Origin: Candidatus Dormiibacterota bacterium
GTDB taxonomy: Bacteria; Chloroflexota; Dormibacteria; Dormibacterales; Dormibacteraceae
NCBI GenBank assembly: GCA_036500885.1
Contig: DASYBH010000261.1
Location: 1-31,356 of the forward strand
Length of the DNA: 31,356 nucleotides
Direction of reading: 5' to 3'
Within the stretch, counting starts at the first letter, position 1, and each line of letters begins with the position of its first letter. Below the pieces are notes generated by a model that saw nothing but the letters and a program-made list of their open reading frames with translations, was not told the DNA's origin and did no database searches. A program made the translations under genes and the position numbers. This document shows positions 8,211 to 26,106 of the stretch, one piece after another.

Positions 8211-8234
8211 GCCGGCTATCCCAGCTCCCACCGC

Positions 8235-10484: not shown

Positions 10485-10638
10485 TGCTCACTCCACGTTT
10501 CCTGCTCACAGGAACATCGTCGATCCACATGCATCATCAGGCAAACCGCTCAGCTTCCCTCTGAGCATAGCTCACTGTCACGGCATGCTCAAGTCAGCCA
10601 ACGGCACACTGTGAAGAGGAACGGCCGTTGAAGTTGGG

Positions 10639-10792
10639 TGCAGCACGAAGTCACGAAGAGCACGAAGACGCACGAAGAGATTCGAGGTCAGCCTCAGCGC
10701 TCTGGCTGACCCAGACCCCTCCATTCCTTCGTGCGTCTTCGTGTCCTTCGTGGCTCCGTGCTGCAACTCATTCAGCTAATCGCCCGCCCGAA
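10639..10792. repeat. CACGAAG-unit long-hairpin repeat (REP/MITE-like), copy 1
   Basis: Imperfect 39-bp inverted repeat (10639-10677 / 10727-10765) built of four CACG(A/G)AG units around a 49-nt spacer. A homologous copy lies at 25840-25990. Confidence 0.9.
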
Positions 10793-10857
10793 AGCTCACA
10801 GCCTTTCGCCAGGGCACTCCACGTCATCGGAAGCACTCCTCGTTGGCGCTGGGTCCG

Positions 10858-11859
10858 TCAGGCGCCTACCGCGAGCTCCTCGTTCTCGTCGTTCTGTGCG
10901 AGGAGGTGGCGCAGCGCGTTGGCCTGCGAGCGACGTCGAACCTCTTCGGCGAAGTCGTTCAGCCACTGCAGCGCCGGCTCGAGCGCCGGCATGCCCGGTC
11001 CCGTTTCCACGGAAGCCTGGACCGCGGTCTCGGCCGCGTCTGGCATGCTCGCAAGGCACTCCAGAGCCGTGCGGAGGCGGTCCAGGTCGGGCCGGCGAAT
11101 GCTCAGCCCGGGGCCCTGGAGCGGCCGGCGCCTGGCGTCCCGCGACGCGCGGGCGCGGGTGCGGGCCTGTCTGACGACGTCCCCGACGATGTGGCGCGCG
11201 TGCGCTTCGGGATTGCTGCCGGCGCGATCGCGGATGCTCCTGGTGACCTCGCTCAGGTAGGGCTTGATCTGGCCTGCGACGTACGCGGATATGTCCGGAA
11301 TCTCGGACATGCCAGCCGCGAGCTGGAGCTCGGCGATCACGCGGCCCTGGTCGAGGAGCTCGTATGACCGGCTCCGGCTCAGGCCGAACTCCTGCTTGGC
11401 GTACCGCTCCCACGTCCGGTATCCGAGCGCCGACCATGCGCGCCCCTCGTGGGCCTCCATGAGGAGCAGGCAGACGTGCCGGGTCGCACTCCGGATTCGC
11501 TCGGTGAGGGCTCTCGCGCCAGCCTCGTTCAACGGCCGGCCGTTTCCCGCGCGGGATGCGGGCCGGACGGGCGCTCCCTGCGCCGGCGTCATGGACCGGG
11601 CCGCGTGGTCCCTGCGAGGCCGCGTCATCGGCAGGTCTGACCGCGCCGCTCCGAGGTACGGCGCCTGCTCGGTGAACACCGCTTCGATCGCATCGCAGAT
11701 CGACATGCCGGGTGTGACAGCCGCGACGTGCGGCCGGAGCTTCGCTGCCACAGGCGCCGGCACCGCAACCTCCCCCTGCTGGTGGTAGTCCTCCAGCACG
11801 TGGAGACAGCCGTCCAGCAAGCGCAGCTTCTCTCGGCGCTCGTTTCGGTCGTGATGCAC
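10858..11859 (-). CDS. Hypothetical DNA-binding protein with phage-like HTH (WSALGYRTWERYAKQEFGLSRSRSYELLD)
   Basis: GTG start with GGAG upstream and GC3-biased codons. The central helical segment resembles uncharacterised phage/prophage HTH proteins (recalled resemblance, not searched). The N-terminal ~70-aa domain is unknown. Confidence 0.7.
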   Translation of the reverse strand: MHHDRNERREKLRLLDGCLHVLEDYHQQGEVAVPAPVAAKLRPHVAAVTPGMSICDAIEAVFTEQAPYLGAARSDLPMTRPRRDHAARSMTPAQGAPVRPASRAGNGRPLNEAGARALTERIRSATRHVCLLLMEAHEGRAWSALGYRTWERYAKQEFGLSRSRSYELLDQGRVIAELQLAAGMSEIPDISAYVAGQIKPYLSEVTRSIRDRAGSNPEAHARHIVGDVVRQARTRARASRDARRRPLQGPGLSIRRPDLDRLRTALECLASMPDAAETAVQASVETGPGMPALEPALQWLNDFAEEVRRRSQANALRHLLAQNDENEELAVGA

Positions 11860-11983
11860 TCTTGGCCTTCTCCCAGATCAGTGCACGGTGGTTCACCAGT
11901 CCCCCGCCGCAGCGTTCCCCCGTGAGCCGTTACTCGCCGCGACAGCTCGAACGGCAGGCGGGGCCGCTCGGCCAGGGGGCGCC

Positions 11984-12223
11984 TCACCTCTCGTGCGCTC
12001 CCCCGCTCGTCCGCCGCCGCGTTATCGGGACATGAAGCGTTCGGTGCGCGGGACGCGGCACCAGGTCGGGACGCGAAGCGTCCCAATCGCTGCCGGCCGC
12101 CTCGACGCGCTGCGCCGCGCCCGGCTCGTCCGGCGCGACGGGCCACGGTCCGTACGGAGCCTCCGCCACCAGTCCCAGCCAGACTGCGTATCCTGTCGTC
12201 GCCGCCGCCTCCGTCTCGCTCAT
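11984..12223 (-). CDS. Small hypothetical protein, 79 aa (MSETEAAATTGYAVWLGLVAEAPYGPWPV...)
   Basis: Strong Shine-Dalgarno GAAAGGAGG 7 nt before ATG 12223, GC3-rich codons, and same strand directly upstream of the HTH gene. Confidence 0.55.
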   Translation of the reverse strand: MSETEAAATTGYAVWLGLVAEAPYGPWPVAPDEPGAAQRVEAAGSDWDASRPDLVPRPAHRTLHVPITRRRTSGGAHER

Positions 12224-12680
12224 CGGGGCGCCTCCTTTCTCGTGGTCCCGCGGCCCAGCTCGATTGGCCGAGCTCGAGCGGACGAGTGACATTGTCAGCG
12301 GACAGATGGGGGCGATGGTACTGGCGATAACTCCAGTTTTCTCCTAGGCGCTTCGCGCAGGTAATCGCCTACGCATTCGCATCGGATCGCGGGCGCCGGC
12401 ATCCATTGGCCCGTTCGCAGCGCACGGGAAACCGTGGCGCGGCATCGTCTCTGACCGCCAGGCCGAGCAGGATCGGGTTCCTCCGCAGACACTTTCTTTA
12501 CGATTGATTCTTAGTGTTGCTGGCTGCGGCAGCAGTGAATCTCGTTGACCATGCACCAATCTATCGCGGCGGTGACAGATCGGCGGCCTTGACGCTCGGT
12601 GATCGGCTCTGACAACGTTGTGGAGGTGTGGGTCGTGCGGACAGATCCTTTTCCGGAATGACGATGCAGGGCAGCGGGGC

Positions 12681-12696
12681 GTCCGGAATTCCGGAC
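12681..12696. promoter_or_regulatory. Perfect 16-bp palindrome GTCCGGAATTCCGGAC, candidate operator
   Basis: Self-complementary and 38 nt upstream of the LAL ATG. A half-site TCCGGAAT lies 30 bp upstream (12652), and there is a 16/18 match inside the HTH gene at 11293-11310. Confidence 0.6.
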
Positions 12697-12734
12697 ATCC
12701 GGCGGCGGTACGACAGGGGTCCTGAGACGCGGCG

Positions 12735-15404
12735 ATGATCGGGCAGAGCCCGGTCGCAACCACCGCGATGGACGTCGCGGCCCCGCCGGACACCGCGGAC
12801 TGGCGCCTGGTCGGACGGGACGCCGAGCTCGCCGGGATCCGGCGGGCGCTCGACGGCGGGCGGGCCGGGCTCGTCCTCGCCGGCGGAGCGGGCGTGGGCA
12901 AGACCCGCCTGGTGCGAGAGGCGATCGGCGAGATCGAGCAGCGAGACCACGTCGCGTACTGGTTGACGACGAACCGCGCCGCCACGACGATCCCGCTCGG
13001 CGCCTTCGCCCATCTGCTGCCCGCCGGCAGGGCCCCCGCCAACCCGCTCGCCCTGCTCGGCCGGGTGACCAGGTCGCTCGGCGCGCGGGCGCAGGGCCGC
13101 CGCCTCGTGCTGGCGATCGATGACGCCCACCTCATGGACGACGTGTCGGCCGCGCTCGTCCAGCAGCTCGCGGGCACCGGACAGGTCTTCGTCGTGGCCG
13201 CGCTGCGGACGGGCGAGCTGGCGCCGGAGGCGATCACCGCGCTCTGGAAGGAGGGTCTCGCCGACCGCCTGGAGGTTCGCGCCCTCGGCCAGCACCACGT
13301 CGAGGAGCTGGTCTCGTCGGCGCTGGGCGGACCGGTCAGCGTTCCCACGAGCCTGTTCCTCTGGAACATGACGCACGGCAACGTCCTGTTCCTGCGCGAG
13401 GTCATCATGGCCGGCCTGGAGAGCGGCGCCCTCACCGGTGCCGGCGGCACGTGGTGCTGGCAGGGCCCGCTCGAGGTGAGCGCCCGACTCGCCGACGTGG
13501 TCGAGTCCTGCCTGGGCCGGCTCGACCAGGACGAGACGGCGATGCTGGAGGTGCTGGCCGAGGGTGAGCCGCTCGAGGCTCGCGTCCTGGAGTCCTGGTT
13601 CCCCGCCGCCGCGCTGCACTCGGTGGAGCGTCGCGGCCTGCTGAGCTCCCAGTGGGACGGCAGCCGTCTGGCGCTGCGGCTGGCCAACCCGCTCTACGGG
13701 CACGTGCTGCGCGCGCGGACCCCGGTCCTGCGTGGGCGCGCCATCCGCCGCCAGCTCGGCGACGCCCTCGTCAGGACCGGCGCCAGGAGGCGCGACGACA
13801 CGCTGCGGATCGCGGTCTGGCACCTCGAGTCAGGCGGCGGGGGGGCGCCCGAGCTGATGCTGCGCGCGGCGCGGGACGCGCTGGCGGGGTTCGACCATCC
13901 GCTCGCCGAGCGCATGGCGCGAGCCGCCGGGGACGCCGGCTGCGGACCGGCGGCCGCCATCGCGCTCGCCCAGTCCCTCTACCTCCAGGGCCAGAGCCAG
14001 GAGGCGCTCGACGTCCTGTCCGGGCTCCGCCTCGCGGCCCTCAGCGAACCCGAGCGTGTCTGGGTCGCCGCGCTGAGGGCGCAGGCGCTGTGCTGGGGCG
14101 TGGGTCGAGCCTCCGAGGCGGAATCCGTCCTCGTGACCGCGGAGGCGGCGGCCCCGGAGGGCTCGCTCCGCGACCTGCTGACGGCCGTCCGGGCCGCCGT
14201 TCTCCTCTTCTCCGGCCGGCTGGAGGGCGCGCTTCAGGCGGCGACCAGCGTCCTCGACGGGCCGGGTGGAGACGAGCGCGCCTGCGTGCCCGCCGCCATG
14301 ACGGCGGCCTTCGCACTGGCCGCCTGCGGGCAGTCGGAGAGGGCGGTGGCGGCGGCCGAGCGCTGGATCCACGCCGCCGGGCAGATGGGCGGGGGCGTGC
14401 CGTTCGCGCCCGGCCGCCTGCTGGCCGCCCAGTGCTTCGCCTTCCGGATGGCCGGCTGGCTCGATGACGCCGCCGGGAAGTCGGAGCACGGGTACCGGAG
14501 CGCGCTGGACAGGGGCGACCATCACTCGGCGGTCGGCTGGGCGACGATGCTGGGCCGCACCGCCCTCGACCGAGGGCAGGTCGCTGACGCCCGGCGCTGG
14601 CTCAACGAGGCCCTCATGCTCTCGGGCGACTGCGGGCACGTCAGCTTCCTCCCTGGCTGCCTGGCGTGGCTGGCGGAGGCGGAGGCGCTGCACGGAAACG
14701 TCGCCGGCGCCGCGGCATCCATCGAGCGAGCCGAGGCGCTGCGCCCGCAGGCCGCCGCCCTGTTCGAGGCCGACATCGCGCTCTCTCGCGCGTGGCTCGC
14801 CGCTGCCCATGGCGACCTCTCGCGGGCCAGGGCGCTGGCGGCCGGCGCCGCCGGCGCGGCGGAGGAGCGCGGCCACCTGGCGGTCGCGATCACCGCCCTG
14901 CACACCGTCGTGCGGTTCGGCGGCGCGGCCGCGGTCGCCGCCCGGCTGGAGCGGCTGGCGGGCGTCGTGAACGGACCTCTGGCCCCCGCGTGCGCGTCGC
15001 ACGCCAACGCCCTGGCCGCCCGCGACGGCGCCGGCCTCGACCGGGTGGCGTCGGCGTTCGAGGCGATCGGCGCCCACCTGCTCGCGGCCGAGGCGGCGGC
15101 TGAGGCGGCGGCGGCGCACTGCGCGAGGGGGCGGCGGGGACGCTCGCTCTCGTCCAGCACGACCGCCCACTCCCTCCTGGACCGCTGTGGTGGCGCCCGC
15201 AGCCCCGCCCTCGTCGGCCTCAAGGCCCCCGCCCTGACCCAGCGTGAGCGACAGGTGGCCCTGCTGGCCGCACAGGGCCTCTCGAGCCGGGCCATCGCCC
15301 AGCGCCTGACGCTCTCCGTGCGGACCGTCGACAACCATCTCCAGGTCGCCTACGGAAAGCTGGGGATCACCGGCCGGCGAGCGCTCGCACAGGTGCTGGA
15401 CTGA
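12735..15404 (+). CDS. Large ATP-binding LuxR-family (LAL/MalT-like) transcriptional regulator
   Basis: Walker A GGAGVGKT, Walker B LVLAIDDAH, sensor GNVLFLRE, an Ala-rich TPR-like region, and C-terminal LuxR HTH LTQRERQVALLAAQGLSSRAIAQRLTLSVRTVDNHL. Confidence 0.95.
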   Translation: MIGQSPVATTAMDVAAPPDTADWRLVGRDAELAGIRRALDGGRAGLVLAGGAGVGKTRLVREAIGEIEQRDHVAYWLTTNRAATTIPLGAFAHLLPAGRAPANPLALLGRVTRSLGARAQGRRLVLAIDDAHLMDDVSAALVQQLAGTGQVFVVAALRTGELAPEAITALWKEGLADRLEVRALGQHHVEELVSSALGGPVSVPTSLFLWNMTHGNVLFLREVIMAGLESGALTGAGGTWCWQGPLEVSARLADVVESCLGRLDQDETAMLEVLAEGEPLEARVLESWFPAAALHSVERRGLLSSQWDGSRLALRLANPLYGHVLRARTPVLRGRAIRRQLGDALVRTGARRRDDTLRIAVWHLESGGGGAPELMLRAARDALAGFDHPLAERMARAAGDAGCGPAAAIALAQSLYLQGQSQEALDVLSGLRLAALSEPERVWVAALRAQALCWGVGRASEAESVLVTAEAAAPEGSLRDLLTAVRAAVLLFSGRLEGALQAATSVLDGPGGDERACVPAAMTAAFALAACGQSERAVAAAERWIHAAGQMGGGVPFAPGRLLAAQCFAFRMAGWLDDAAGKSEHGYRSALDRGDHHSAVGWATMLGRTALDRGQVADARRWLNEALMLSGDCGHVSFLPGCLAWLAEAEALHGNVAGAAASIERAEALRPQAAALFEADIALSRAWLAAAHGDLSRARALAAGAAGAAEERGHLAVAITALHTVVRFGGAAAVAARLERLAGVVNGPLAPACASHANALAARDGAGLDRVASAFEAIGAHLLAAEAAAEAAAAHCARGRRGRSLSSSTTAHSLLDRCGGARSPALVGLKAPALTQRERQVALLAAQGLSSRAIAQRLTLSVRTVDNHLQVAYGKLGITGRRALAQVLD

Positions 15405-15408
15405 CGGG

Positions 15409-15540
15409 CAAGGGGGGCGGCCACCCCTTCCGGAACCCCCCTCTTTGTCTGGGATGTTGGGGGGCCAGGACACAGTCTGCCGGTTTTGGGGTGCGGGGCT
15501 GTAGCATCGAGAGGCGGCCTCCCTCCGGTGGCCGCTGGAA
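15409..15540. repeat. Intergenic cluster of short GC-rich inverted repeats between convergent LuxR genes
   Basis: GGGGGGCGGCCACCCCTTCCGGAACCCCCC resembles 19548-19580 (GAGGGAGCAACCCCCTTCCC). Also contains the inverted repeat GCGGCC...GGCCGC. Confidence 0.4.
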
Positions 15541-15547
15541 GGAGGGT

Positions 15548-16180
15548 TCAGATTCCGAGCATGTCGGCGCGCTTGATGGCCTCGACCCGGTTGCGGGCTC
15601 CGAGCTTCTCGAGGACGTTCCGGATGTGGAAGTCGACGGTGCTGCCCGACACCACCAGCACCTGGGCGATCTCTCGGTTGCGACGCCCCAGACGCATCAG
15701 GTGCAGCACCTCGCGTTCGCGCTTCGTCAGACTCGCGACGGGCGGGATCTGGCGCATCTGCGAGGTGTCCTGGAAGCACTTGTCGACGACACAGACTGAG
15801 GTCTGTTGCGCGAACCTGAGGATGCTCATCACCCTGTCGATCGGGTTCTCGTCAGCGAGAAATGCCGAGCAGCCCCGGCGCAGCCAGCGCTCGGCCGTCG
15901 CGAGGTCGCCCTCGGGCCCGAGCACCGCCACCTTGAGCGTCGCGCATATCAGCCGCCCCGCCTGCACGAACGAGTCACGATCCTCGTCGTTCGGGCCCAC
16001 GCCGAGGATCAGCCATTCCGGATCGTAGGCGTTCATGGCGTGCTGAACGGCCCGGAGCCGTGGCTCGCACCTGATGATGGAGGTCTCGCCGAGTCGAATC
16101 GCCTGGCTGTTGGCCGGCATAGCCGACCAGTTCCCGATGAGCACCACCGTGTCGCACGGATCGTAATTATCGATAACCAC
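15548..16180 (-). CDS. NarL/LuxR-type regulator with atypical (Asp-less) receiver domain
   Basis: C-terminal HTH LTKREREVLHLMRLGRRNREIAQVLVVSGSTVDFHIRNVLEKLG. The N-terminus is receiver-like (DPEWLILG, KVAVLG, RRGCSAFL) but lacks the phosphoacceptor Asp and the conserved Lys. Confidence 0.85.
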   Translation of the reverse strand: MVIDNYDPCDTVVLIGNWSAMPANSQAIRLGETSIIRCEPRLRAVQHAMNAYDPEWLILGVGPNDEDRDSFVQAGRLICATLKVAVLGPEGDLATAERWLRRGCSAFLADENPIDRVMSILRFAQQTSVCVVDKCFQDTSQMRQIPPVASLTKREREVLHLMRLGRRNREIAQVLVVSGSTVDFHIRNVLEKLGARNRVEAIKRADMLGI

Positions 16181-16478
16181 CCTACAGGGTCCTGAAACCC
16201 AACACCGTCCCGCGGCTGCTTACTAGAACAACCTAGCAGATGCTCCAGGAGCCGGCATTCCACCAGTACGTTCGGCCCCTCCAGGGCGGTGCCCCGTGCG
16301 GGCGCGGCCGCACGAATGCCTCTCGAACTGGGAATCTCACAGATCGTCAGGTGTTGCGGTAGCGCGAGGGTGACCGCGGCAGCGCCTCCGGCGAGGCCGG
16401 CGTTGCGCACGATGGTTCGGGCCCCTCTTCTCCCAGGGTGGCCCGGGGCCGCCGTATCGGTAACCGGGGAGCGGGACA

Positions 16479-16555
16479 TGAGTAATCGGGCCGGCAACAC
16501 GGCGGTTGTGTGGGTAGAGCCTACTCAGGATCGTCGATCGGTCGCGGGCTAACGT
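16479..16555 (+). promoter_or_regulatory. Activator-dependent promoter candidate for the DJ-1/ABM-VOC/ferritin-like operon
   Basis: TGAGTAATC (16479), a 7-3-7 inverted repeat TGGGTAG-AGC-CTACTCA (16511-16527), then 22 nt to -10 TAACGT (16550-16555). The same layout recurs at 22613-22687. Confidence 0.7.
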
Positions 16556-16643
16556 GGCTCGTGCCGCACCGAGTCGTGACGCTCCGCAACGCCCGGTGTG
16601 AGCGGCGTGAAGGCAACAGACGACCCAGAGGAGGCGACGAGAA

Positions 16644-17390
16644 ATGGCAGAGATCAAGTCGATCGCGGTCGTGGGCTACAAGAACGCCAGCGAGCAGGAC
16701 ACCATCACCCCGCTGGAGATCTTCCGGGGTGCGAAGCTCGTGCTGGGTGACCAGATCGCTCCGTGGAAGCGCGCGGACGGCCCGCGGCAGCTGGACGTCA
16801 AGCTCGTCTCGATGGAGCCCGGCAACATCACGATGCAGACGGGTACGCAGGTGGTGCCAGACGCCGTGCTCGGCGACCACGACCTGTTCGACATCTTCTA
16901 CGTCCCGGGCGGCGTCGGATCCGGCGCGATGACGCAGAACCACAAGCTCATCAACGCGATCAAGCGACACCACTCCGCCGGCAAGGTGATCGGCGCCAAC
17001 TGCTCGGGCGTCGGCGTCCTGCACCGGGCGGGGATCCTGGGCAAGACGCAGGTGACGGCGGTCGCCGCGGTCGTGCGCGGAATGCGCGCGGAGGGGACCA
17101 ACGTTCCACAGCCGCGGCGGATGTGGGAGGGCGACCCGGAGCGGGGCATCTGGACGGCCACCGGCTCGTACGGCATCAACGGCGCCACCGTGGCGATGGT
17201 GGCCCATTACTTCGGTCGCGAGGTCGGGACGATCGTTTCGATGATGTTCGACACGTACGGTGGGGTCGGCGAGCACATCTACGAGCTGCGCGGGCCCGAG
17301 TTCTACTACCACCCGGACCTGGAGCCCAAGTTCCAGGACTACTTCGAGCCCATGCTGCTTCCCAAGCCGAAGCAGGAAGCGCACAGGTGA
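16644..17390 (+). CDS. DJ-1/PfpI family protein (isonitrile hydratase InhA-like subgroup)
   Basis: SEQDTITPLEIF, FDIFYVPGG, nucleophile elbow ANCSG (C120) and WTATGSYGING. GAGGAGG ribosome-binding site. Confidence 0.85.
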   Translation: MAEIKSIAVVGYKNASEQDTITPLEIFRGAKLVLGDQIAPWKRADGPRQLDVKLVSMEPGNITMQTGTQVVPDAVLGDHDLFDIFYVPGGVGSGAMTQNHKLINAIKRHHSAGKVIGANCSGVGVLHRAGILGKTQVTAVAAVVRGMRAEGTNVPQPRRMWEGDPERGIWTATGSYGINGATVAMVAHYFGREVGTIVSMMFDTYGGVGEHIYELRGPEFYYHPDLEPKFQDYFEPMLLPKPKQEAHR

Positions 17391-18163
17391 TCACGGTAAC
17401 GGCAGTACAGCACGTCAAGCCGGGCAAGGAAGGCGACGTCGAAACGCTGATGCGGGACCTCACGACCAGGGTCAGGGCCAACGAACCGGGCTGCGTGACC
17501 TTCGACTACGTTCGCTCGAACGACAACGAGCACACCTACCTGGTCATCGAGCAGTACGCCGACGAGGCGGCGTTCGGTCAGCACAGGACGACGCAGTACC
17601 TGCAGGACTTCATTCCGCACCTGCTGGAGTGCCTGCGGAAGCCGCCCGAGGTCGTGACGTATCGAGACGTGCTGCCGGCGCCGCCATCCGCTCAGTCCTA
17701 CTTCCACGCGGGAGTGGTGGTCCCGGACCTGGAACGAGCCGTGGCGTGCTACTCCGACGTGCTGGGCATCCGGTTCACCGAGCCGGCTACGTTCGACGTT
17801 CCGCGGCTCGAGGACCCCCATCCGCACCACTTCGAGCTGGTGTGCGCGTTCTCGATGACCGCGCCACCGTACTACGAACTGATCCAGGCCAATGGCGACG
17901 GGATCATCTCCGTCGCCAACGCCGGCAGGATCCTCTACTTCGGCATCTGGGAACCCGACATGGCCGGCCGGCTGGAGCGCCTGCGGCAGCGGGGCGTCGG
18001 CGTCGATGCCCTGTTCCGCATGGACGCCACCTCACCGCCCTTCGCGCTGATCACCGCGCCGGACCTGCTGGGCGCGCGGATCGAGTACGTCGACGTGAGC
18101 GACAGGGAACCGATCGAAGAGTGGGTTCGGACCGGCAAGTTTCCTGGCGGGATCGGGGGTTAG
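17387..18163 (+). CDS. ABM (quinol monooxygenase-like) - VOC/glyoxalase fusion protein, 258 aa
   Basis: GTG start overlaps the upstream TGA. N-terminus VKPGKEGD...EPGCVTFDY...YLVIEQYADEAAFGQHRTT is ABM-like. C-terminus YFHAGVVVPDLERAV...YYELIQ...RIEYV is VOC-like. Confidence 0.85.
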   Translation: MITVTAVQHVKPGKEGDVETLMRDLTTRVRANEPGCVTFDYVRSNDNEHTYLVIEQYADEAAFGQHRTTQYLQDFIPHLLECLRKPPEVVTYRDVLPAPPSAQSYFHAGVVVPDLERAVACYSDVLGIRFTEPATFDVPRLEDPHPHHFELVCAFSMTAPPYYELIQANGDGIISVANAGRILYFGIWEPDMAGRLERLRQRGVGVDALFRMDATSPPFALITAPDLLGARIEYVDVSDREPIEEWVRTGKFPGGIGG

Positions 18164-18302
18164 CGGGGCGGCGAGCGCGCCCTATCGCGGCGGTGCCGCA
18201 CATGCGCCAGGGAGCGTGGGCCAGTGAGGCGGCGGTGCGCCGCCTCGCCGGCCCGCTCCCGCCAGCGGCGACCCGCCGACTCTGGACGAAAAGGAGGTCG
18301 TC

Positions 18303-19466
18303 ATGTCCGTCGTCGTGGACCAGATCGCAACTGAACCCGCCAACCGGGACATCGCCTGGCTGCACGAGGCGCTCCAGTCGGCGATCGCCCTGGAACACTC
18401 GACGCTGCCGCTGTACCTCGCCGCGATGTTCTCGCTGGAGGTGCAGAACTACCCGACCTACAACGCCATCCGCAGCGTGGTCATGGAGGAGATGGTGCAC
18501 ATGGCCATCGCCGCCAACATGCTGGCGGCGATCGGGGGCTCGCCCCGCATCAAGGACCTCGATCCCGGCTACCCGTGTCACGGTCTGCCCGGCGGCGCCG
18601 AGCCGGACCTGCAGGCCGGCCTGGCCAGGCTCTCCCCGCGGCAGCTGCAGAACTTCATGCGCCTGGAGGCGCCCCTCTTCCTGCTGCCGGAGAAGCACCG
18701 CAAGGAGGGCTACCCGACGATCGGCCGGCTCTACACCGCGATCAAGGAGGCCATCGTCGCCAACGCGGACGCCGTGAGGGAGGCGTTCACGGCCGGTGGC
18801 ACTGCCAACCAGGTGGGGGACAACATCGGGTTCACCACGATCAGCCCAACGCCCGGCATCGATCCGGTCGACCTGCTCGACCGGGCCATCGACGAGATCC
18901 TCGCCCAGGGTGAGGGATCGACCTCGGGCACCATCCAGGCGGGACCCGAGTACGAGAACGAGGAGTCGCACTACGGCAAGTTCGCCGAGCTGTGGTACGG
19001 CGCGCGGTACCAGGAACCGAACCCGCCGGTGCCGCTGAACCGCAAGAACGAGGCGCAGTTCTTCAAGGGCACGAAGATCACCTGGCCGGTCGTCGTCAAC
19101 ACGCTCGCGGTGCCCGCCGACGGGTACGCGCGCATCCTGGCGCGCGATCCGAACGGCCAGGCGGTGTCCAGGGACCTCACGGCCTTCGACACCGTGTACA
19201 CGGGGATCATGGCCCAGCTGGACGCCATGTGGAACGGTCCGGTCGACACCCTGTGGCCGACGTTCGGCGAGGCCGTGAAGGGCATGACCGACCTTCGGGT
19301 CCTGTCCTGCTTCAACATCATGCGGTACCACGTGCCGGCCCCGGTGATCGCGGAGCTGCCACGTCTCTACCCTGACGAGTACCCGTTCCTGTCGACATAC
19401 ACCGATCTCGACAAGCCGGTCTTCTACGGCCCGCGCTTCCGCAATCTGGCGGCCGCGAGCCAGTAG
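18303..19466 (+). CDS. Ferritin-like domain protein (VioB/RebD-type Ferritin-like family, standalone)
   Basis: LQSAIALEHSTLPLYLAAMFSL, VVMEEMVHMAIAANMLAAIGGSP, QGEG and ESHYGKF motifs. AAAGGAGG ribosome-binding site. Confidence 0.85.
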   Translation: MSVVVDQIATEPANRDIAWLHEALQSAIALEHSTLPLYLAAMFSLEVQNYPTYNAIRSVVMEEMVHMAIAANMLAAIGGSPRIKDLDPGYPCHGLPGGAEPDLQAGLARLSPRQLQNFMRLEAPLFLLPEKHRKEGYPTIGRLYTAIKEAIVANADAVREAFTAGGTANQVGDNIGFTTISPTPGIDPVDLLDRAIDEILAQGEGSTSGTIQAGPEYENEESHYGKFAELWYGARYQEPNPPVPLNRKNEAQFFKGTKITWPVVVNTLAVPADGYARILARDPNGQAVSRDLTAFDTVYTGIMAQLDAMWNGPVDTLWPTFGEAVKGMTDLRVLSCFNIMRYHVPAPVIAELPRLYPDEYPFLSTYTDLDKPVFYGPRFRNLAAASQ

Positions 19467-19488
19467 GGGGCGCGGTCCGGTTTCTGGC

Positions 19489-19588
19489 AACCTCCCCCGT
19501 GTTCGGGGGAGGTTTGGGGTGGGGGATTGTTCGTCCAGCCGCGGCGCGAGAGGGAGCAACCCCCTTCCCTGCCCTCCCTGGACGAACA
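19489..19588. repeat. Composite REP-like hairpins
   Basis: AACCTCCCCCG-TGTT-CGGGGGAGGTT (19489-19514) with a TGGGGTGGGGG tail, and an 11-bp inverted repeat TGTTCGTCCAG / CTGGACGAACA (19528-19588). The tail matches 27300-27319 in reverse orientation. Confidence 0.6.
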
Positions 19589-19670
19589 CCTGACGGCGGT
19601 CCTGGGGTCCTGTGCGGACTATGCTGGGCCGGTGCATACGGGGTGAACCCGAGGTACTGGGGAGGAACCG

Positions 19671-20351
19671 ATGAGAAAGCGCGTCTACTATCACCATATC
19701 GCTGGGCACAGCATCGAGCGATTGGGCGCCCTGAGCGATGGCATCTTCGCAGTTGCCATGACGCTGCTCGTACTCGACGTCCACGTTCCCGCCGGCGAAG
19801 CGCTCCACTCGCTGGCGCGGGTCCAGGCGCTGTGGGCGGCTGGCTCGCTGGTGCCGGACCAGGCGCTCTGGAGCGCCCTTGGCGGACTGGCGCCGAACGT
19901 GCTCGCGTACCTGTTGAGCTTTCTGACCCTCGGCATGTTCTGGGTCGGCCATCAGACGCAGCTCAGCCACTTCAAGCGCAGCAATCGCTATCTCACCTGG
20001 ATCCACCTCGCGTTCCTGTTCGGGGTGTCGCTGATGCCGTTCTCGACGGGTCTGCTGGCCGCGTTCATCACGTTCCGGGTCGCCCTGGTGCTGTACTGGC
20101 TCAACCTCCTCTTCCTCGGGTTCACGCTCATCGCCAGCTGGCGGTACGCGGAGCGTGCGGGATTGGTCAACGAGGAGACGACCGACGACCTGCGCCATGC
20201 GCTGCAGCGGCGCATCGTGATCGCGCAGACCCTCTACGCGATCGCGGTGGCATTCTGTGTCATCAACACCTACGTCAGCATCACCATCCTCGTCCTGCTG
20301 CAGCTGAACTCCGCCATCGCGCCGCGGATATTCCCACTCGATCGCTTCTGA
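19671..20351 (+). CDS. TMEM175 family (DUF1211) membrane protein, putative K+ channel
   Basis: N-terminal signature ERLGALSDGIFAVAMTLLVLDV, FWVGHQ, LMPFSTGLL, and about six hydrophobic helices. Confidence 0.9.
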   Translation: MRKRVYYHHIAGHSIERLGALSDGIFAVAMTLLVLDVHVPAGEALHSLARVQALWAAGSLVPDQALWSALGGLAPNVLAYLLSFLTLGMFWVGHQTQLSHFKRSNRYLTWIHLAFLFGVSLMPFSTGLLAAFITFRVALVLYWLNLLFLGFTLIASWRYAERAGLVNEETTDDLRHALQRRIVIAQTLYAIAVAFCVINTYVSITILVLLQLNSAIAPRIFPLDRF

Positions 20352-20360
20352 CGGCGGTGA

Positions 20361-22376
20361 TCAGTCGCTGCTCGAGAGTCGGGCTCCCAGCTGCCGCAGG
20401 AAGCGGTCCCACTGCTCATGGAACTCTGGCGAGTCGGGCGCGTGGCCCGTGGTCATGCGTGTGATCTGGGGCAGCAGCTGCGGGCAGTGGGTGAGCGCGA
20501 AGGCCATCAGCCGCAGCGCGGCGGCGTCGAACTCGGGGTCGATGAGACGCTCCCGCTGCCGGTCCCGGACCTCCGCCACCTGGCGATCGATCACCGCGCG
20601 CCGCTCGGTCTCGTGCGGGATCGGACCGCCGGCGCCCACGACGAGCGCCTCCTCGAGCAGGTATCGGTGCCAGGTCGGGCTGTGTCCGGGGTGCTCGAAC
20701 TGGTGCACCAGGAACTCACCCGTCTCGCGCGGCGTCTCCTCGACCTGGAGCGCTCCGAGTGAGGCCTCGTGGTGCAGGGTCTCGGCCATGTGGTGCCGAA
20801 GGATGTGCTCCATCAGGTGATCGCCGGCGCGCCCGCCCGTCGCGAAGTAGAACGAGTGCACCAGGCCGTGGAGGTGGCTGGGCGCCCGCTCCAGGAAGAC
20901 GTTCGACCTCGCGACGGGAGCAGGGCGTGGCAGCAGGAAGACGAGGAGGAGCAACAGGATCGCGAGCCCGGCCAGCAGGGGCAGGGTGACCTGGTACGCG
21001 AACAGGTAGCGGGTCGCATGCGACGTGCCGGCCGGCTCGGCGCCCACGGCGAGGAAGAACACCATGCCCACCAGTGCGATGCCGAGCGTCTGCCCGAGCT
21101 GGAACGAGGTCGTCAGGGCTCCGGCCGCGGCTCCGGTGTCCTCCGGCCGGATCCCGGAGAGCACGGCGCCGATCAACGTCGAGACGGCGAGCCCCTGGCC
21201 GGTGCCGACGATGAGCAGGGCGGGCGCGAGCGTCCAGACGGTCAGGCCGGTGCCCGCGGCGTGCACGCTGGCGAGGATCGCCAGCATGCCGGCCAGCAGG
21301 ATGACGTATCCCAGGCTCAGGACGTGCCGTCCCAGTCCGGGGACCAGCCGCGGCGCCACGAGCGAGGCGAAGAAGAAGGCGACCCCTGAGGGCGCCGAGG
21401 CGAGGCCGGCCTGCAGCGCTGTGAAGCCCAGGCCGATCTGGAGGGTCACGGACGTGTAGACGAAGAAGCCGAGGGCGGTGACGAAGTACACCAGGCCGAT
21501 CGCGATCCCCGTGGCGAACGCCCTCTGTCGAAACAGCCCCAGCGTGAGCAGCGGATGCCCGCCCGTTCGCTCGACGCGCCCCTCGTACCAGACGAAGAGG
21601 GCGAAGACCGGGAACGAGGCCACCAGCATCGCCACCAGCCAGAGCGGCCAGCCGGCCTCGCGGCCGATGAGGAGCGGAAGGATCAGGAGCGCCAGCGCGG
21701 CGCCGAGGATGACGGTGCCGCCGTAGTCGAGCGTGGGCCGCCCCTCGGAGCGCGTGTCGCTCATGACGACGGCCGCGGCGACGAGGGCCGCCGTGCTGAC
21801 CGGCGCGAGGACCAGCATCGCCGGCCGCCACGCCAGTCCGCCGAGGTCGAGCTGGATGAGGACTCCCCCGATCAGCTGGCCGGCCACCAGCGCGACCCCG
21901 ATCGTCGCGCCGAACAGGCCGAGCGCGAGGCTGCGCTCCCCGCCCTCGAAGGTCTCCTCGATGATCGAGAGGATCTGCGGGTAGAGGAGAGCGGAGCCGA
22001 ATCCCTGGAGCACCCTCGCGCCGATCAGCGTCGTGGCGTTGGGAGCCAGGCCGCCCGCGACCAGCCCGATCGTGATGATGGCCAGGCCCGCCATCAGCAC
22101 GCGCTTTCGCCCCACGATGTCGCCCAGCCGCCCGCCGGCGATGAGGAAGATCGCGTAGACGAGCGTGTAGGCGGCGACGACCAGCTCGATCTCACCGAAG
22201 CTGGCGTTCAGCGTGCGCTGCATGGACGGCATGGCCAGGTTGACGATCGAGACGCCACCGATCACGAGGAACGTGCCGGTCAGAGCGACCGCGAGCACCA
22301 ACCAGCGCCGGTGGTCTGTCGCGTGGGCCGGTCTGGCCATCTGCGTGCGCTTCTCTCGGTCGGCGACCTGGATCAC
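20361..22376 (-). CDS. DHA2-type MFS exporter (14 TM) fused to a C-terminal TetR-like ligand-binding domain, 671 aa
   Basis: GTG 22376 follows GAGGAGG. Motif A GGRLGDIVGRKR, ARVLQGFGSA, motif C GQLIGG and LDYGG. The soluble tail (about 180 aa; LIDPEFDAAALRLMAFAL...PQITRMTTG...PEFHEQW) resembles a TetR C-terminal domain. Confidence 0.88.
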   Translation of the reverse strand: MIQVADREKRTQMARPAHATDHRRWLVLAVALTGTFLVIGGVSIVNLAMPSMQRTLNASFGEIELVVAAYTLVYAIFLIAGGRLGDIVGRKRVLMAGLAIITIGLVAGGLAPNATTLIGARVLQGFGSALLYPQILSIIEETFEGGERSLALGLFGATIGVALVAGQLIGGVLIQLDLGGLAWRPAMLVLAPVSTAALVAAAVVMSDTRSEGRPTLDYGGTVILGAALALLILPLLIGREAGWPLWLVAMLVASFPVFALFVWYEGRVERTGGHPLLTLGLFRQRAFATGIAIGLVYFVTALGFFVYTSVTLQIGLGFTALQAGLASAPSGVAFFFASLVAPRLVPGLGRHVLSLGYVILLAGMLAILASVHAAGTGLTVWTLAPALLIVGTGQGLAVSTLIGAVLSGIRPEDTGAAAGALTTSFQLGQTLGIALVGMVFFLAVGAEPAGTSHATRYLFAYQVTLPLLAGLAILLLLLVFLLPRPAPVARSNVFLERAPSHLHGLVHSFYFATGGRAGDHLMEHILRHHMAETLHHEASLGALQVEETPRETGEFLVHQFEHPGHSPTWHRYLLEEALVVGAGGPIPHETERRAVIDRQVAEVRDRQRERLIDPEFDAAALRLMAFALTHCPQLLPQITRMTTGHAPDSPEFHEQWDRFLRQLGARLSSSD

Positions 22377-22568
22377 GGACGTCCTCCTCAACCCCCCGGA
22401 TGACAGCGGGACCGTTCGAGCGTAACCACCTGAGCACGCGTCGACAGTTCTCCAGTCAACGCATCGCACCGCTGACGTGTCGAGCCGGACGCCCCGGCCG
22501 TGCCAGTGCGCCCAGGATACGATACGAGCCCCTTCCCCCGCCCCCCCGGGGACGTCACACCGGCGTTC

Positions 22569-22687
22569 TGAGTAGCGCGCTCCGGGCGCATCCGCAGCCA
22601 TCGGCCGAGATGTGAGTAATCCACCTGCCGATCCGGCTTTCCGCCGGCCAGCCTACTCAAGACGGTCGACCCCCGGACGGATACGTT
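22569..22687 (+). promoter_or_regulatory. Activator-dependent promoter candidate for the GMC/SnoaL/DJ-1/KSI operon (divergent from MFS)
   Basis: TGAGTAG (22569), TGAGTAATC (22613) and AGCCTACTCA (ends 22659), then 22 nt to -10 TACGTT (22682-22687). Confidence 0.7.
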
Positions 22688-22773
22688 GCGGATGCCGGAC
22701 GGACTCGCGACGCCCGGCGACGAACGCTCAGCTTCAGCAGTCGCGGCGATCGTCTTGAGTGGAGAGGAAACAC

Positions 22774-24282
22774 ATGAAGTACGACCACATCGTAGTTGGG
22801 GGCGGCTCGACCGGCGCGGTCCTTGCGACCCGGCTCTCTGAGGATCCGGGCTGCTCCGTCCTCCTGCTGGAGGCGGGCCCGGACTTTCCCGAGGTCGAAC
22901 AGCTCCCCGAGGACATCGCCAACGCGCGGACCGTCTCTGTGGAGAAGCACGACTGGGGCTACACCGCCGAGGCCGTGCCCGGGCGCACGATGGAGTATGC
23001 CCGCGGCAAGGTGACCGGCGGCTGCTCGGCCATCAACGGCGCGATCGCGCTGCGGGGGATCCCGGCCGACTTCGAGGAGTGGGCCGCGTGGGGGAACGAC
23101 GAGTGGGCGTGGGAGAAGGTCCTGCCCTACTTCATCAAGATCGAGGACGACCAGGACGAGGAGGGCCCGTACCACGGCAAGGGCGGTCCGACGCCGATCG
23201 TCCGCTGGCGCGACCACGAGCTCGTGCCTCTTCAGAAGGCGTACCTGGAGGCCTGCCTGGCACAGGGCTTCGCCTACGTCGCGGACCACAACGACCCCCG
23301 CAGCTCCGGCGTCGGGCCGATTCCCATGAACCGGTGCGGGAACCTGCGCGTCTCCTCGGCGGTCGCCTACCTGGGCCAGGCGCGGGAGCGCCTGAACCTG
23401 ACCATCCGGCCGGGTGCGCTCGTGAACCGCGTCCTCTTCGACGGGACGCGCGCGACCGGCGTCGAGGTGGAGGCCGGCGGACAGGTGCAGAGCATCTACG
23501 GCGAGAACATCACGCTGTCGCTCGGCGCGCTCAACACCCCGGCCGTGCTGCTGCGCTCGGGTGTGGGGCCGAGGGCCGAGCTCCGAAGGCTGGGAATCAA
23601 GCAGGTGCTCGACCAGCCCCACGTCGGGGCCAACCTGATCGAGCACCAGCAGATCACCGTCGGCATCGTGCCCAAGGCCAACGTCACGAGCCTCGACGAC
23701 CCGGACGTGCAGATCATCGTCCGGTACACCTCACCCGGCACGAACCAGGAAAACAACATGCAGATGTACTTCGTCAGCCGCTATGTGCCGATCACGCACC
23801 GGCCGATCAGCGTCATGAGCGTGCTGCAGAAGCCGAAGTGCCGGGGCAAGGTCTCCATCAAGACCGTGGACCCGCACAAGCAGCCGGACATCTTCCTGAA
23901 CTCCTACGGCGAGCCGGAGGACAGGCAGATCGCGCTGGAGGGCGTGCGGCTGTGCTGGGAGGTCGCCAGGTCGAAGCCGGTCCAGGACCTCGCCGCGGGG
24001 ATGGCGGACACGCTGACGCCGGAGCAGGTGAAGAACGACAAGGCGCTGCTCGAGTACGTCAAGGAGCACTCCGCGACCCTGTGGCACCCGGTCGGCACCT
24101 GCAAGATGGGCCCCAGCAGCGACTCCACGGCGGTGGTCGACCAGTACTGCCACGTGCACGGCCTGGACAACCTGCGGGTCGCCGACGCCTCCGTGATGCC
24201 CAACCACGTCAGCGGAAACCCGAACCTCACCTGCTTCGTGATCGGCGAGCGAGTGGCCGACTGGGCGAAGAAGGGCCTGTAG
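22774..24282 (+). CDS. GMC family FAD-dependent oxidoreductase (choline dehydrogenase/alcohol oxidase-like)
   Basis: MKYDHIVVGGGSTG, LLLEAGPD, ARGKVTGGCSAING, WHPVGTCKMG, LRVADASVMP and GNPN (His/Asn catalytic pair). GAGAGG ribosome-binding site. Confidence 0.95.
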   Translation: MKYDHIVVGGGSTGAVLATRLSEDPGCSVLLLEAGPDFPEVEQLPEDIANARTVSVEKHDWGYTAEAVPGRTMEYARGKVTGGCSAINGAIALRGIPADFEEWAAWGNDEWAWEKVLPYFIKIEDDQDEEGPYHGKGGPTPIVRWRDHELVPLQKAYLEACLAQGFAYVADHNDPRSSGVGPIPMNRCGNLRVSSAVAYLGQARERLNLTIRPGALVNRVLFDGTRATGVEVEAGGQVQSIYGENITLSLGALNTPAVLLRSGVGPRAELRRLGIKQVLDQPHVGANLIEHQQITVGIVPKANVTSLDDPDVQIIVRYTSPGTNQENNMQMYFVSRYVPITHRPISVMSVLQKPKCRGKVSIKTVDPHKQPDIFLNSYGEPEDRQIALEGVRLCWEVARSKPVQDLAAGMADTLTPEQVKNDKALLEYVKEHSATLWHPVGTCKMGPSSDSTAVVDQYCHVHGLDNLRVADASVMPNHVSGNPNLTCFVIGERVADWAKKGL

Positions 24283-24323
24283 GCGCGTTCGGGACGCCCG
24301 TTGACCCAAGGAGACCAAGAGCC

Positions 24324-24740
24324 ATGATTGGAGACGGAACCAGGCTGGTGCACCTGTACTACGAGAAGTTCCTCACGACCCCGGGAGACCTGGACGTGGC
24401 GGACCAGATCCTCGCGACGGACGTGGTCTTCCACAACCCGATCTCACCCGACGGCATCCATGGCATCGACCAGTACAAGCAGTTCGCGCTCCGCTGGTAT
24501 CGCGGCTTCCCGGATCGCAGGTTCAAGGTCGAGGACACGGTCGAGGAGGGGAGCAAGGTCGCCGCCCTGTTCACCATCACCGGCACGCACAACGGTGAGT
24601 TCGCGGGCGCGGCGCCGACCGGGCACCACATCCAGGTGCACGGCATGAACATCTTCCGCATCGAGAAGGGGAAGATCAAGGACGTCAAGGCGTTCTTCAA
24701 CCCGCTGGAGCTGTACCAGCCGATCGGTGTGAAGCTGTGA
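24324..24740 (+). CDS. SnoaL-like ester cyclase / NTF2-fold protein, 138 aa
   Basis: YRGFPDRRFKVEDTVEEGSKVAALFTITGTHNGEFAGAAPTG...FRIEKGKI matches the ester cyclase pattern. AAGGAG ribosome-binding site before ATG 24324. Confidence 0.9.
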   Translation: MIGDGTRLVHLYYEKFLTTPGDLDVADQILATDVVFHNPISPDGIHGIDQYKQFALRWYRGFPDRRFKVEDTVEEGSKVAALFTITGTHNGEFAGAAPTGHHIQVHGMNIFRIEKGKIKDVKAFFNPLELYQPIGVKL

Positions 24741-25366
24741 CGTCTCCGTCCCCGTTCAAGGGCAGGATCGGGGTGCTCGTCGAGGACCACTTCGACCAGA
24801 CCGAGTACCGGATGTTCAACGAGTACTTCCCGGAGCAGGGATACGAGGTGGAGTACCTCTCCCACCTGTGGGGCCAGAGGCAACTGACGTTCGGCGGCAA
24901 TCCCGACAGCGGCGTCGTCGAAGAGCACGTGACAGTCACGACCGAGGTGCAGGACCTCGATCCCGCGGACTACAAGGGCATCATCCTGATCGGCGCCTAC
25001 GCCATGGACCGGCTGCGCTACCAGGAGCACGTCCACAGGGGTGGGAAGAACACCGCTCCCGCGGTCGACTTCCTGCGCAGGGCGCTGAGCACCAACGGTG
25101 TCAAGATCGGTACGATCTGCCACTCCCTGTGGCTGCTGTGCGCCGACCCCGATCTCATTCGCGGCCGGCAGGTGACGTGCGCCCACAACATCGTGTGCGA
25201 TGTGGAGAACGCCGGCGGCGAGGTGATCTACTCCGGGGACGGGACCGCGGAGGTCGTGGTCGATGGCAACCTGGTCTCGGCCAAGCATCCCGCCGTGACG
25301 GACCGGTTCATGGCCCGCTTCGTGCAGGAGATCGAGCGGGCTCCGGTGGGAGTGCAAGGAGGGTAG
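24737..25366 (+). CDS. DJ-1/PfpI family protein (PfpI-like, Cys-His dyad)
   Basis: IGVLVEDHFDQTEY, YKGIILIG, AMDRLR, nucleophile TICHS and VVVDGNLVSAKHP. GTGA overlap with the upstream gene. Confidence 0.9.
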   Translation: MTSPSPFKGRIGVLVEDHFDQTEYRMFNEYFPEQGYEVEYLSHLWGQRQLTFGGNPDSGVVEEHVTVTTEVQDLDPADYKGIILIGAYAMDRLRYQEHVHRGGKNTAPAVDFLRRALSTNGVKIGTICHSLWLLCADPDLIRGRQVTCAHNIVCDVENAGGEVIYSGDGTAEVVVDGNLVSAKHPAVTDRFMARFVQEIERAPVGVQGG

Positions 25367-25368
25367 AC

Positions 25369-25752
25369 ATGCCTGAAGCCGCGCAGATTCGCAAGGCGGT
25401 CGAGACGTACGTCCAGAGCTTCAACACGAAGGACAAGCACGCGTTCCTGAGCGTGTTCGCGGAGGGCGTCCAGCAGATCGATCCCGTCGGCTCGAAGCCC
25501 AACGTGGGCAAGCACAAGCTGGCGGCGTTCTGGGACACCCTCTTCAGCCAGGTCGAGAAGATCGACTTTCGCGTCACCGACCTGTTCATCACCGGCGACG
25601 AGGCGGCCCTGCTGTTCCACATCACGCAGTCGAAGAAGGACGGGGACGTCGTGGTCGACGGGGTCGACGTCTTCCAGGTGAACGACGCGGGCCACATCAC
25701 GCTGATCAAGGGCTACTCGGACGCGAACCACGTCAGGTCGAACTCTCACTGA
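25369..25752 (+). CDS. Ketosteroid-isomerase-like NTF2/SnoaL protein, 127 aa
   Basis: Y14, D38 (DPVG) and D100 (VDVF) align with the KSI catalytic Tyr14/Asp38/Asp99. AAGGAGG ribosome-binding site. Confidence 0.85.
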   Translation: MPEAAQIRKAVETYVQSFNTKDKHAFLSVFAEGVQQIDPVGSKPNVGKHKLAAFWDTLFSQVEKIDFRVTDLFITGDEAALLFHITQSKKDGDVVVDGVDVFQVNDAGHITLIKGYSDANHVRSNSH

Positions 25753-25790: not shown

Positions 25791-25830
25791 TGTCTCGCGC
25801 CCGCCACACCGCCAGATGATCGATTCCGAA

Positions 25831-25990
25831 TTGGTCTGAAGCACGAAGCCACGAAGAGCACGAAGACGCACGAAGGTTTTCGAGGTCAGTCCAAGCGCTC
25901 CAGCCGGTCGCCAGATCCAAATTCCTTCGTGCGTCTTCGTGCCCTTCGTGGCTCCGTGCTGCAACTCGTTCAGACAATCGGCCGCTCGAA
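25831..25990. repeat. CACGAAG-unit long-hairpin repeat, copy 2
   Basis: Same orientation as copy 1 and colinear with it (offset 15,198 bp), with the same 49-nt spacer length and near-identical arms. Confidence 0.9.
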
Positions 25991-26106
25991 CGGGCACCGC
26001 CCCATCCGCCCGGGAACCGCACCGGATTCGGAATCGTTCATCTCTGGACCGTGAGCTGACCTCCCGCCCCGCCGGAATCGACCCTCCGGTGTCGGAAGGC
26101 GTCTGG

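Follow-up and report, generated by a model that had tools for sequence, protein, structure and literature searches.

A TGAGTA box shared by two divergent promoters of a Candidatus Dormiibacterota gene cluster and its predicted link to a LAL-type regulator

Genes and features of the locus

The window analysed here is a stretch of 31,356 nucleotides from a Candidatus Dormiibacterota bacterium (assembly GCA_036500885.1, contig DASYBH010000261.1, positions 1 to 31,356 of the forward strand). The element in question is a short box, read TGAGTA in one orientation and TACTCA in the other, which recurs in two intergenic regions (IGR1 and IGR2) upstream of enzyme operons and is predicted to be bound by a LAL-type (large ATP-binding) LuxR-family regulator encoded in the same cluster. 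The assembly comprises 3.95 Mb in 537 contigs and is 87% complete. Pfam matches and the G+C content at third codon positions (GC3) give the gene order LAL (+), small LuxR (-), IGR1, DJ-1/PfpI, ABM-glyoxalase, ferritin-like and TMEM175-like (+), then MFS transporter (-), IGR2, GMC oxidoreductase, DJ-1, SnoaL and further genes (+), so that both IGR1 and IGR2 are divergent spacers (Table 1).

The LAL gene is the only one of its type in the assembly. Its product has an AAA_16/STAND-type P-loop NTPase domain at the N-terminus (PF13191, residues 24-150, E = 5e-12, above the cutoff) and a LuxR/GerE helix-turn-helix (HTH) at the C-terminus (PF00196, residues 833-887, E = 7e-13), while the middle region gives a single TPR_2 match below the cutoff (24 bits vs 27); its length of 889 aa compares with about 900 aa for the type. 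The recognition helix (LSVRTVDNHLQ) is kept in box-carrying homologues.

The small LuxR-type protein contains a GerE domain, and the Response_reg profile finds no match in it even at E<=5. Alignments with DesR, NarL and FixJ in PDB reach into the alpha4-beta5 region, which is the only part that aligns, and the beta1 and beta3 acidic positions are occupied by GN and G; the protein does not pass as a receiver domain with the phospho-acceptor aspartate of NarL/FixJ response regulators, and the label pseudo-receiver seems reasonable for it. Its public gene call has 162 aa, while its homologues have 210-226 aa, which supports a start at GTG 16180.

Table 1. Features of the window that bear on the two box promoters
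Feature	Position	Strand	Basis or remark
LAL regulator gene, 889 aa, proposed box binder	12735-15404	+	Pfam: AAA_16/STAND NTPase, weak TPR, C-terminal GerE HTH
Small LuxR-type gene, 210 aa, N-terminus resembling a degenerate receiver; alternative candidate binder	15548-16180	-	GerE domain only
IGR1 promoter module, paralogous to 22572-22722	16438-16592	+	Local alignment; kept in orthologous L014, L018
Degenerate far box TCGGTAA, 22 bp 5' of distal box	16457-16463	+	Read from sequence; weak assignment
Distal box TGAGTAATC, DJ-1 operon promoter	16479-16487	+	
Putative proximal operator TGgGTA-GAGCC-TACTCA, 6-5-6 near-palindrome, one mismatch	16511-16527	+	Holds AGCCTACTCA (16518-16527)
-10-like hexamer TAACGT, 22 nt past TACTCA; predicted transcription start near 16562	16550-16555	+	
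Leader block CCGCAC-CGAGTC-GTGACGC	16562-16587	+	Conservation
Proposed target operon 1: DJ-1/PfpI, ABM-glyoxalase, ferritin-like (PF12902), TMEM175-like	16644-20351	+	Pfam
MFS transporter with TetR_C-like tail	20361-22376	-	Pfam; GC3 frame plot; ribosome-binding site GAGGAGGA
Third (far) box TGAGTAG, 44 bp 5' of distal box, same orientation	22569-22575	+	
Distal box TGAGTAATC, GMC operon promoter	22613-22621	+	
Proximal box AGCCTACTCA, lone right half, no left half-site	22650-22659	+	
-10-like hexamer TACGTT, 22 nt past TACTCA; predicted transcription start near 22694	22682-22687	+	
Proposed target operon 2: GMC oxidoreductase, small open reading frame, DJ-1/PfpI, SnoaL-like	22774-25752	+	Pfam

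Boxes and promoter modules in the two spacers

Both spacers carry the distal and the proximal box, the distance from the start of TGAGTAATC to the start of CTACTCA being 42 bp in IGR1 and 40 bp in IGR2. Exactly 22 nt then separate CTACTCA from a -10-like hexamer TANNNT (N represents any nucleotide), and the start codons lie 116 and 114 nt past the motif. The window has six TGAGTA/TACTCA hexamers, five of them in the two spacers, and the third box of IGR2 stands 44 nt, not 22, from a minus-strand TATCGT (22524-22519). These positions and distances had all been given correctly in an earlier note on this DNA, which proposed that the shared pattern is an operator defining a regulon. The likeness noted there is real but was under-described, as the local alignment of the two spacers covers about 150 bp (16438-16592 vs 22572-22722) with a score of 30 against 12.4 +/- 1.6 for 500 dinucleotide shuffles (z = 10.8), and the proximal box of IGR1 is one half of a near-palindrome. 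Identity clusters at the boxes, the -10 hexamer and the leader block, and the DNA between the boxes is near random. Counterparts of the degenerate far box occur at the same 22-bp offset in two orthologous spacers described below (L014, TCAGTAG; L018) and in IGR2 (TCCGCAG).

Neither spacer contains a sigma-70 consensus promoter, as expected where an activator is needed; at the -35 position only nGAC can be read, 17 nt 5' of the -10 hexamer, which is usual after boxes throughout the regulator family. Relative to the predicted transcription start sites (TSSs), the proximal half-site would lie at about -41 to -36, the position of a class-II activator. The earlier note had placed it in such a position, and the 22-nt distance to the -10-like hexamer holds across the family.

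The leader block recurs at 22696-22720 in IGR2, at about 9140-9165 in L023 and at about 6935-6920 (-) in L230; it is kept in L014, L018, IGR2 and L023, and partly in the DJ-1 promoter of Actinoplanes. As RNA, its consensus folds weakly (-7 kcal/mol) and shows little covariation; the block may or may not act as an RNA element, and given the weak fold it could be a second operator. The 22-nt spacer itself holds short palindromes, namely GATCGTCGATC in IGR1 (16529-16539) and GGTCGACC in IGR2 (about 22664-22671); in Actinoplanes, the DJ-1 and GMC promoters retain their core, GAC-GTCGAT. The palindrome may be the site of a second factor or part of the contact between LAL and polymerase, and the small LuxR could bind either the leader block or the spacer palindrome.

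Occurrence in the assembly and extent of the regulon

In the whole assembly TGAGTAATC, TGAGTA-N30-40-TACTCA and CTACTCA-N22-TANNNT, the last being the pattern put forward for a genome-wide scan in the earlier note, are each confined to the two spacers, and the full grammar with one mismatch allowed still returns these two sites alone. A chance origin of the shared pattern is excluded at genome scale. In this assembly the regulon claimed earlier comes down to these two promoters, the only ones that fit the grammar. A further copy of AGCCTACTCA (C249:3697) lies in a coding-like context, has no partner box and is probably due to chance.

The claim that the exporter is under the same control is not supported as stated, as the third box breaks the 22-nt rule toward the MFS gene; it is the MFS gene of Actinoplanes that has a canonical box promoter. 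On the minus strand, the distal and third boxes form no symmetric N22 promoter toward the small LuxR or the MFS gene, as read from the sequence. The third box looks like an additional upstream member of the GMC-operon array. L019, L061 and the Dormibacteria loci have such a third box, and arrays of this kind, with two direct boxes and one inverted, also occur in L092/L103. Upstream of the epimerase-isoamylase operon of the window there is no canonical box promoter, and TGAGC-type variants occur there beside a repeat-element insertion (TGAGC-TAT-GCTCA and TGAGCA variants 5' of the epimerase gene, at 10562-10574 (-) and 10499-10511). TGAGCA/TGCTCA stands in for one half-site in the LAL loci L082, L089, L147, L149 and L212, and the TGAGC-type variants may be degenerate LAL boxes.

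Orthologous spacers and the syntenic cluster in Actinomycetota

DNA and protein searches of 60 relatives found no orthologue of IGR1 or of the DJ-1 gene, and a search of genome contigs with GMC as the query yielded no useful loci. Metagenome contigs whose small LuxR is 72-75% identical to that of the window carry the same divergent DJ-1 operon: L014/L015 have TGgGTAATC, then 41 bp on AGTCTACTCA, N22 and TAACGT, while L018 has TGAGTAATC, TACTCA after just 21 bp, N22 and TAACGT. The code also persists in more distant loci, there at different promoters: three boxes in 42-bp steps, N22 and TAGCGT in L019 (small LuxR 61% identical), and TGAGTAG, 43 bp on a one-mismatch box TGCTCA, then N22 and TACGGT in L023 (42%). 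The distal box of IGR1 is thus kept in L014 (as TGgGTAATC), L018 and L019, as well as at the Actinoplanes DJ-1 and GMC promoters. In the orthologous spacers the boxes and the register to the -10 hexamer are constant, while the sequence and length between the boxes vary, the length shifting in steps of about two helical turns. The box spacings in the window, L014, L018, L019 and Actinoplanes (43; 44+41; 41; 21; 42+42; 43; 20; 21; 21+20 bp) describe a phased array of the MalT-box kind, with short direct and inverted boxes at multiples of the helical turn; the helical phasing proposed in the earlier note fits the spacings of 20-21 and 41-43 bp, and outliers of 52 and 66 bp occur at GMC promoters. 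Streptomyces DJ-1 homologues (L003-L008, 61-69% identity) were also considered, and have other upstream repeats without TGAGTA boxes.

The cultured Actinoplanes subtropicus NRRL B-24665 (L230; G374:C3, about 100-120 kb) has a syntenic cluster with 52-78% protein identity to the window, sharing the small LuxR, MFS, ferritin-like, ABM-glyoxalase, DJ-1, TMEM175, isoamylase, epimerase-STAS, LAL and GMC genes. Four promoters of this cluster, 5' of the MFS, DJ-1, epimerase and GMC genes, follow the grammar. TACTCA-N22-TANNNT is matched six times in the 11.3-Mb genome, four of them inside a 17-kb stretch of the cluster, and six of eight matches in the metagenome-assembled genome (MAG) AC_7 (L231) lie inside its cluster; the near-confinement of the matches to the cluster makes the LAL a cluster-situated regulator. 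The operon 1 gene set adjoins boxes in L014-L018 and in Actinoplanes, and both Actinoplanes and AC_7 have GMC promoters that follow the grammar. Soil metatranscriptome contigs over the Actinoplanes DJ-1 region were short, low-depth pieces from close relatives and gave no TSS.

Positions 6093-25752 of the window are syntenic with L230 and L231, and the cluster was not found in the 60 Dormibacteria relatives, which suggests that the enzyme/regulator cluster was horizontally transferred. The window genome falls in the same class as MAGs titled Candidatus Dormibacteria, but the best protein matches of the cluster are to Actinomycetota.

Linkage of the boxes to LAL genes

Two kinds of scan bear on the regulator that reads the boxes, a motif-first scan of 374 genomes of the window's class and protein-first, motif-blind scans of two sets (metagenome and named genomes), each of 80 loci with homologues of the window LAL. 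Raw matches of the motif-first scan are about as frequent overall as those of a backwards-pattern control, so these counts are uninformative alone and adjacency to LAL genes is what counts. The conserved matches (15 of the 16 genomes of one Dormibacteria genus, G083 and G121) directly adjoin full-length homologues of the window LAL (33-42% identity). Several class-wide matches (e.g. L060, L058) are stop-codon coincidences, as TGAGTAG contains TGA and TAG. Homologues of the small LuxR were found in just three other genomes of the class, none of them among the conserved box-carriers, and their loci have no boxes; G375 has a LAL and a box without a close small LuxR.

In the metagenome set, TGAGTA/TACTCA reaches 1.9 per kb in the LAL-gene flanks (300-360 bp), against 0.13 per kb elsewhere and 0.03 per kb inside the LAL gene, and its 88 matches compare with an average of 7.2 across the 90 hexamers that share its composition. 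The named-genome replicate, which spans Actinoplanes, Amycolatopsis, Nocardia, Micromonospora, Streptomyces, Acidimicrobiia, Thermoleophilia, Dormibacteria and Chloroflexota MAGs, gives 1.68 per kb in LAL flanks vs 0.14 per kb elsewhere, so that the hexamer is about 12-14 times denser in LAL flanks than in the rest of the locus in both blind sets. No other flanking gene family is common to more than 10 of the 52 box-carrying loci. A 64-aa HTH gene 3' of the Dormibacteria LALs was considered as a general partner and rejected (3 of 80 loci, none in the window's assembly). None of the conclusions draws on the unpublished genome G246.

The commonest site in the family is the compact palindrome TGAGTA-N5-TACTCA, which has the shape expected of a GerE-type dimer site and the same 6-5-6 form as the proximal site of IGR1; 18 adjacent box pairs of the form TGAGTA-N5/6-TACTCA occur in the first blind set. 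The palindromic form is thus present with one mismatch in IGR1 and absent from IGR2. The offset from TACTCA to TANNNT has one sharp peak at 22 nt (7 of 88 and 6 of 86 boxes in the two sets), any other offset from 8 to 39 nt being found for at most two boxes in either set, and the N22 register also occurs in all Dormibacteria loci. In one Dormibacteria genus (g55; L026-L040, L059) and in L046 the stop codon of the LAL gene lies inside a TGAGTA box, and an array with boxes at 0, 20 and 63 bp, the proximal one a 6-6-6 palindrome, drives a gene for a 64-aa sigma-70-region-4-like HTH protein. The -10 hexamer lies just 9-11 nt 5' of the start codon of this gene, so its mRNA is probably leaderless.

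The LAL recognition helix SVRTV(D/E)NH is conserved wherever boxes occur. TGAGTAC is found in 5 of 57 D-type and 16 of 31 E-type loci (Fisher p = 1e-5) and TGAGTAA in 20 of 57 D-type and 2 of 31 E-type loci, both by a test that ignores relatedness; the window LAL is D-type and its boxes carry A or G at position 7, as expected. The boxes thus appear to track the LAL and not the small pseudo-receiver LuxR, which strongly favours the LAL as the binder.

Proposed mechanism and alternative explanations

The most probable reading, held with good though not full confidence, is that both spacers are paralogous LAL-dependent promoters controlled by the cluster's own LAL. The boxes are very probably the binding site of this regulator, as predicted from their linkage to LAL genes; LAL binding, activation rather than repression, and the TSS positions are what we infer. 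The cis-code would consist of TGAGTA half-sites, the proximal one (read TACTCA) ending 22 nt before a TANNNT -10 hexamer beside a poor -35 (nGAC). Upstream of it, one to three oppositely oriented half-sites would be placed at distances of 20-22 or 41-44 bp, which is roughly 2 or 4 helical turns. The STAND/TPR part of the LAL would bind a signal and ATP, upon which the protein would oligomerise, its GerE-type HTH domains filling the phased boxes and the proximal subunit recruiting RNA polymerase as a class-II activator does. Operon 1 (DJ-1, ABM-glyoxalase, ferritin-like) and operon 2 (GMC oxidoreductase) would in this way be switched on together.

Several observations speak against this. The flanks of the window's own LAL gene contain no exact box, unlike those of most homologues, and an exact flank box is found in only about 58% of LAL-homologue loci. 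The lone half-site of IGR2 would need cooperativity with distant boxes for a dimer to bind there. The co-variation between the D/E position of the helix and box position 7 is uncorrected for relatedness, and all three of the closest syntenic clusters encode the small LuxR, which may therefore act jointly with the LAL. LALs are also able to repress, as SCO6993 does by binding promoter palindromes (PMC9628970).

The earlier note had left the binder as either the LAL or the pseudo-receiver protein. Its interpretation is largely right. It tied a conserved cis-element to a LuxR-type regulator, as the orthologous spacers and the linkage to LAL genes indicate, and of its two candidates the LAL is strongly favoured. 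That the boxes are instead the operator of the small LuxR is unlikely. In its favour, this protein lies divergently next to IGR1 and the DJ-1 operon, its homologues at 72-75% identity keep that arrangement with boxes, the Actinoplanes and AC_7 clusters encode it, and its own recognition helix is conserved. However, boxes adjoin LAL homologues in many genomes that yielded no small-LuxR homologue (the Dormibacteria genus, G083, G375), small-LuxR loci without the target operons carry no boxes (L013, L062/63, L020-22, L055-57), and its helix VSGSTVDFHIRN is unrelated to the helix that tracks the boxes. There is a small chance, only slightly better than that of the small-LuxR operator, that the LAL, when bound to the boxes, represses transcription or has a dual role, for example by occluding the -35 until an inducer releases it, and the overlap of the proximal box with the -35 region would suit such a role. 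Both promoters lack a usable -35, however, and a strict 22-nt register to the -10 hexamer across phyla is the signature of polymerase contact and not of simple occlusion; MalT and most cluster-situated LALs are, moreover, activators.

It is very improbable that the likeness of the spacers is the remnant of a local promoter duplication or the site of an unrelated global factor or an alternative sigma factor. Over about 150 bp, leader sequence included, the modules are clear paralogues, but most of the identity falls in the boxes and the -10 hexamer, the inter-box DNA being near random, and the same code occurs at non-homologous promoters beside LAL genes in different phyla. A gap of 22 nt is unfit for a -35/-10 pair, and the grammar is nearly confined to the cluster in complete genomes.

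Comparison with known regulators and wider reading

MalT of the E. coli maltose regulon is the prototype of the LAL/STAND LuxR-family activators, and its box is GGGGA[T/G]GAGG. The LAL resembles it in being large, in its predicted dependence on ATP and in its C-terminal GerE HTH, and would also activate by oligomerising, and the boxes resemble MalT boxes in being short, asymmetric, direct and inverted repeats phased on the helix, the proximal one abutting a poor -35. They differ in sequence (TGAGTA[A/G]), in that the commonest family site is a true palindrome, in the rigid distance of 22 nt between the proximal half-site and the -10 hexamer, and in showing no sign of a CRP-like co-activator. 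The lux box of LuxR/TraR is a 20-bp class-II site centred near -42.5 and read by an acyl-homoserine-lactone receptor; as at such promoters, a GerE-family HTH dimer would sit on an inverted repeat overlapping the -35 where a good -35 is absent, but the present site has 17 bp, or half-sites split by 2-4 turns, and its proposed reader is a STAND ATPase. NarL, a phosphorylated response regulator, binds heptamers arranged as 7-2-7 and otherwise, and as in its promoters, GerE-family half-sites occur here as palindromes or as single, variably spaced units within one promoter; the sequence of NarL sites and the phosphorylation of NarL are the differences.

The actinomycete LALs PikD, RapH, NysRI and SCO6993 share the protein architecture and the cluster-situated position. 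Operators of LAL regulators are generally undefined (PMC9628970), unlike the consensus and promoter grammar obtained here from comparative data, and literature searches found no description of the TGAGTA motif or of a matching LAL operator. What sets this system apart is its box sequence together with the rigid 22-nt rule; otherwise it would work like MalT-box or lux-box class-II promoters.

More tentatively, and with considerable doubt, the code may span phyla: one LAL subfamily of Actinomycetota, Dormibacterota and Chloroflexota MAGs would read TGAGTA half-sites that are joined in a 17-bp palindrome or separated by 2 or 4 turns, the last half-site locked 22 nt from the -10 hexamer, with an oligomeric STAND assembly wrapping or looping the DNA and the helix D/E residue setting box position 7. 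The branch represented in the window would then switch on a conserved, undescribed pathway apparently moved horizontally between Actinomycetota and Dormibacteria, comprising the DJ-1, ABM-glyoxalase, ferritin-like and GMC proteins plus a glycogen-linked isoamylase and an epimerase. The element would tie the enzymes of this pathway into one co-regulated unit. If true, the split half-site architecture bears on how STAND oligomers read DNA. LALs gate many actinomycete gene clusters with mostly unknown operators, which gives value to a definition of the box, to a strict rule for the promoter (box, 22 nt, -10) and to a candidate specificity residue, all from comparative data; these would permit target prediction for a widespread LAL subfamily, and engineering the LAL or the boxes would help to wake silent clusters. 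The cultured Actinoplanes subtropicus, with its four such promoters, makes box, rule and residue testable.

Neighbouring genes and repeat elements

The open frame of the MFS gene spans 20361-22601 (-) and 746 aa, and its true start is probably GTG 22376, as judged from GC3 and the ribosome-binding site GAGGAGGA. The C-terminal 100 aa or so give a weak TetR_C_21 match, and the protein would then be a transporter fused to a TetR-like ligand domain. Operon 2 may extend further downstream than listed in Table 1. No Rfam family is matched in the window. Two CACGAAG-repeat elements of about 170 bp, each with a long hairpin, lie at 10630-10803 and 25828-26001; they are 84-88% identical, in direct orientation and 15,198 bp apart. 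The block between them contains both regulator genes (LAL and small LuxR), the two box promoters and the MFS gene, and one of the copies lies in the promoter region of the epimerase-isoamylase operon.

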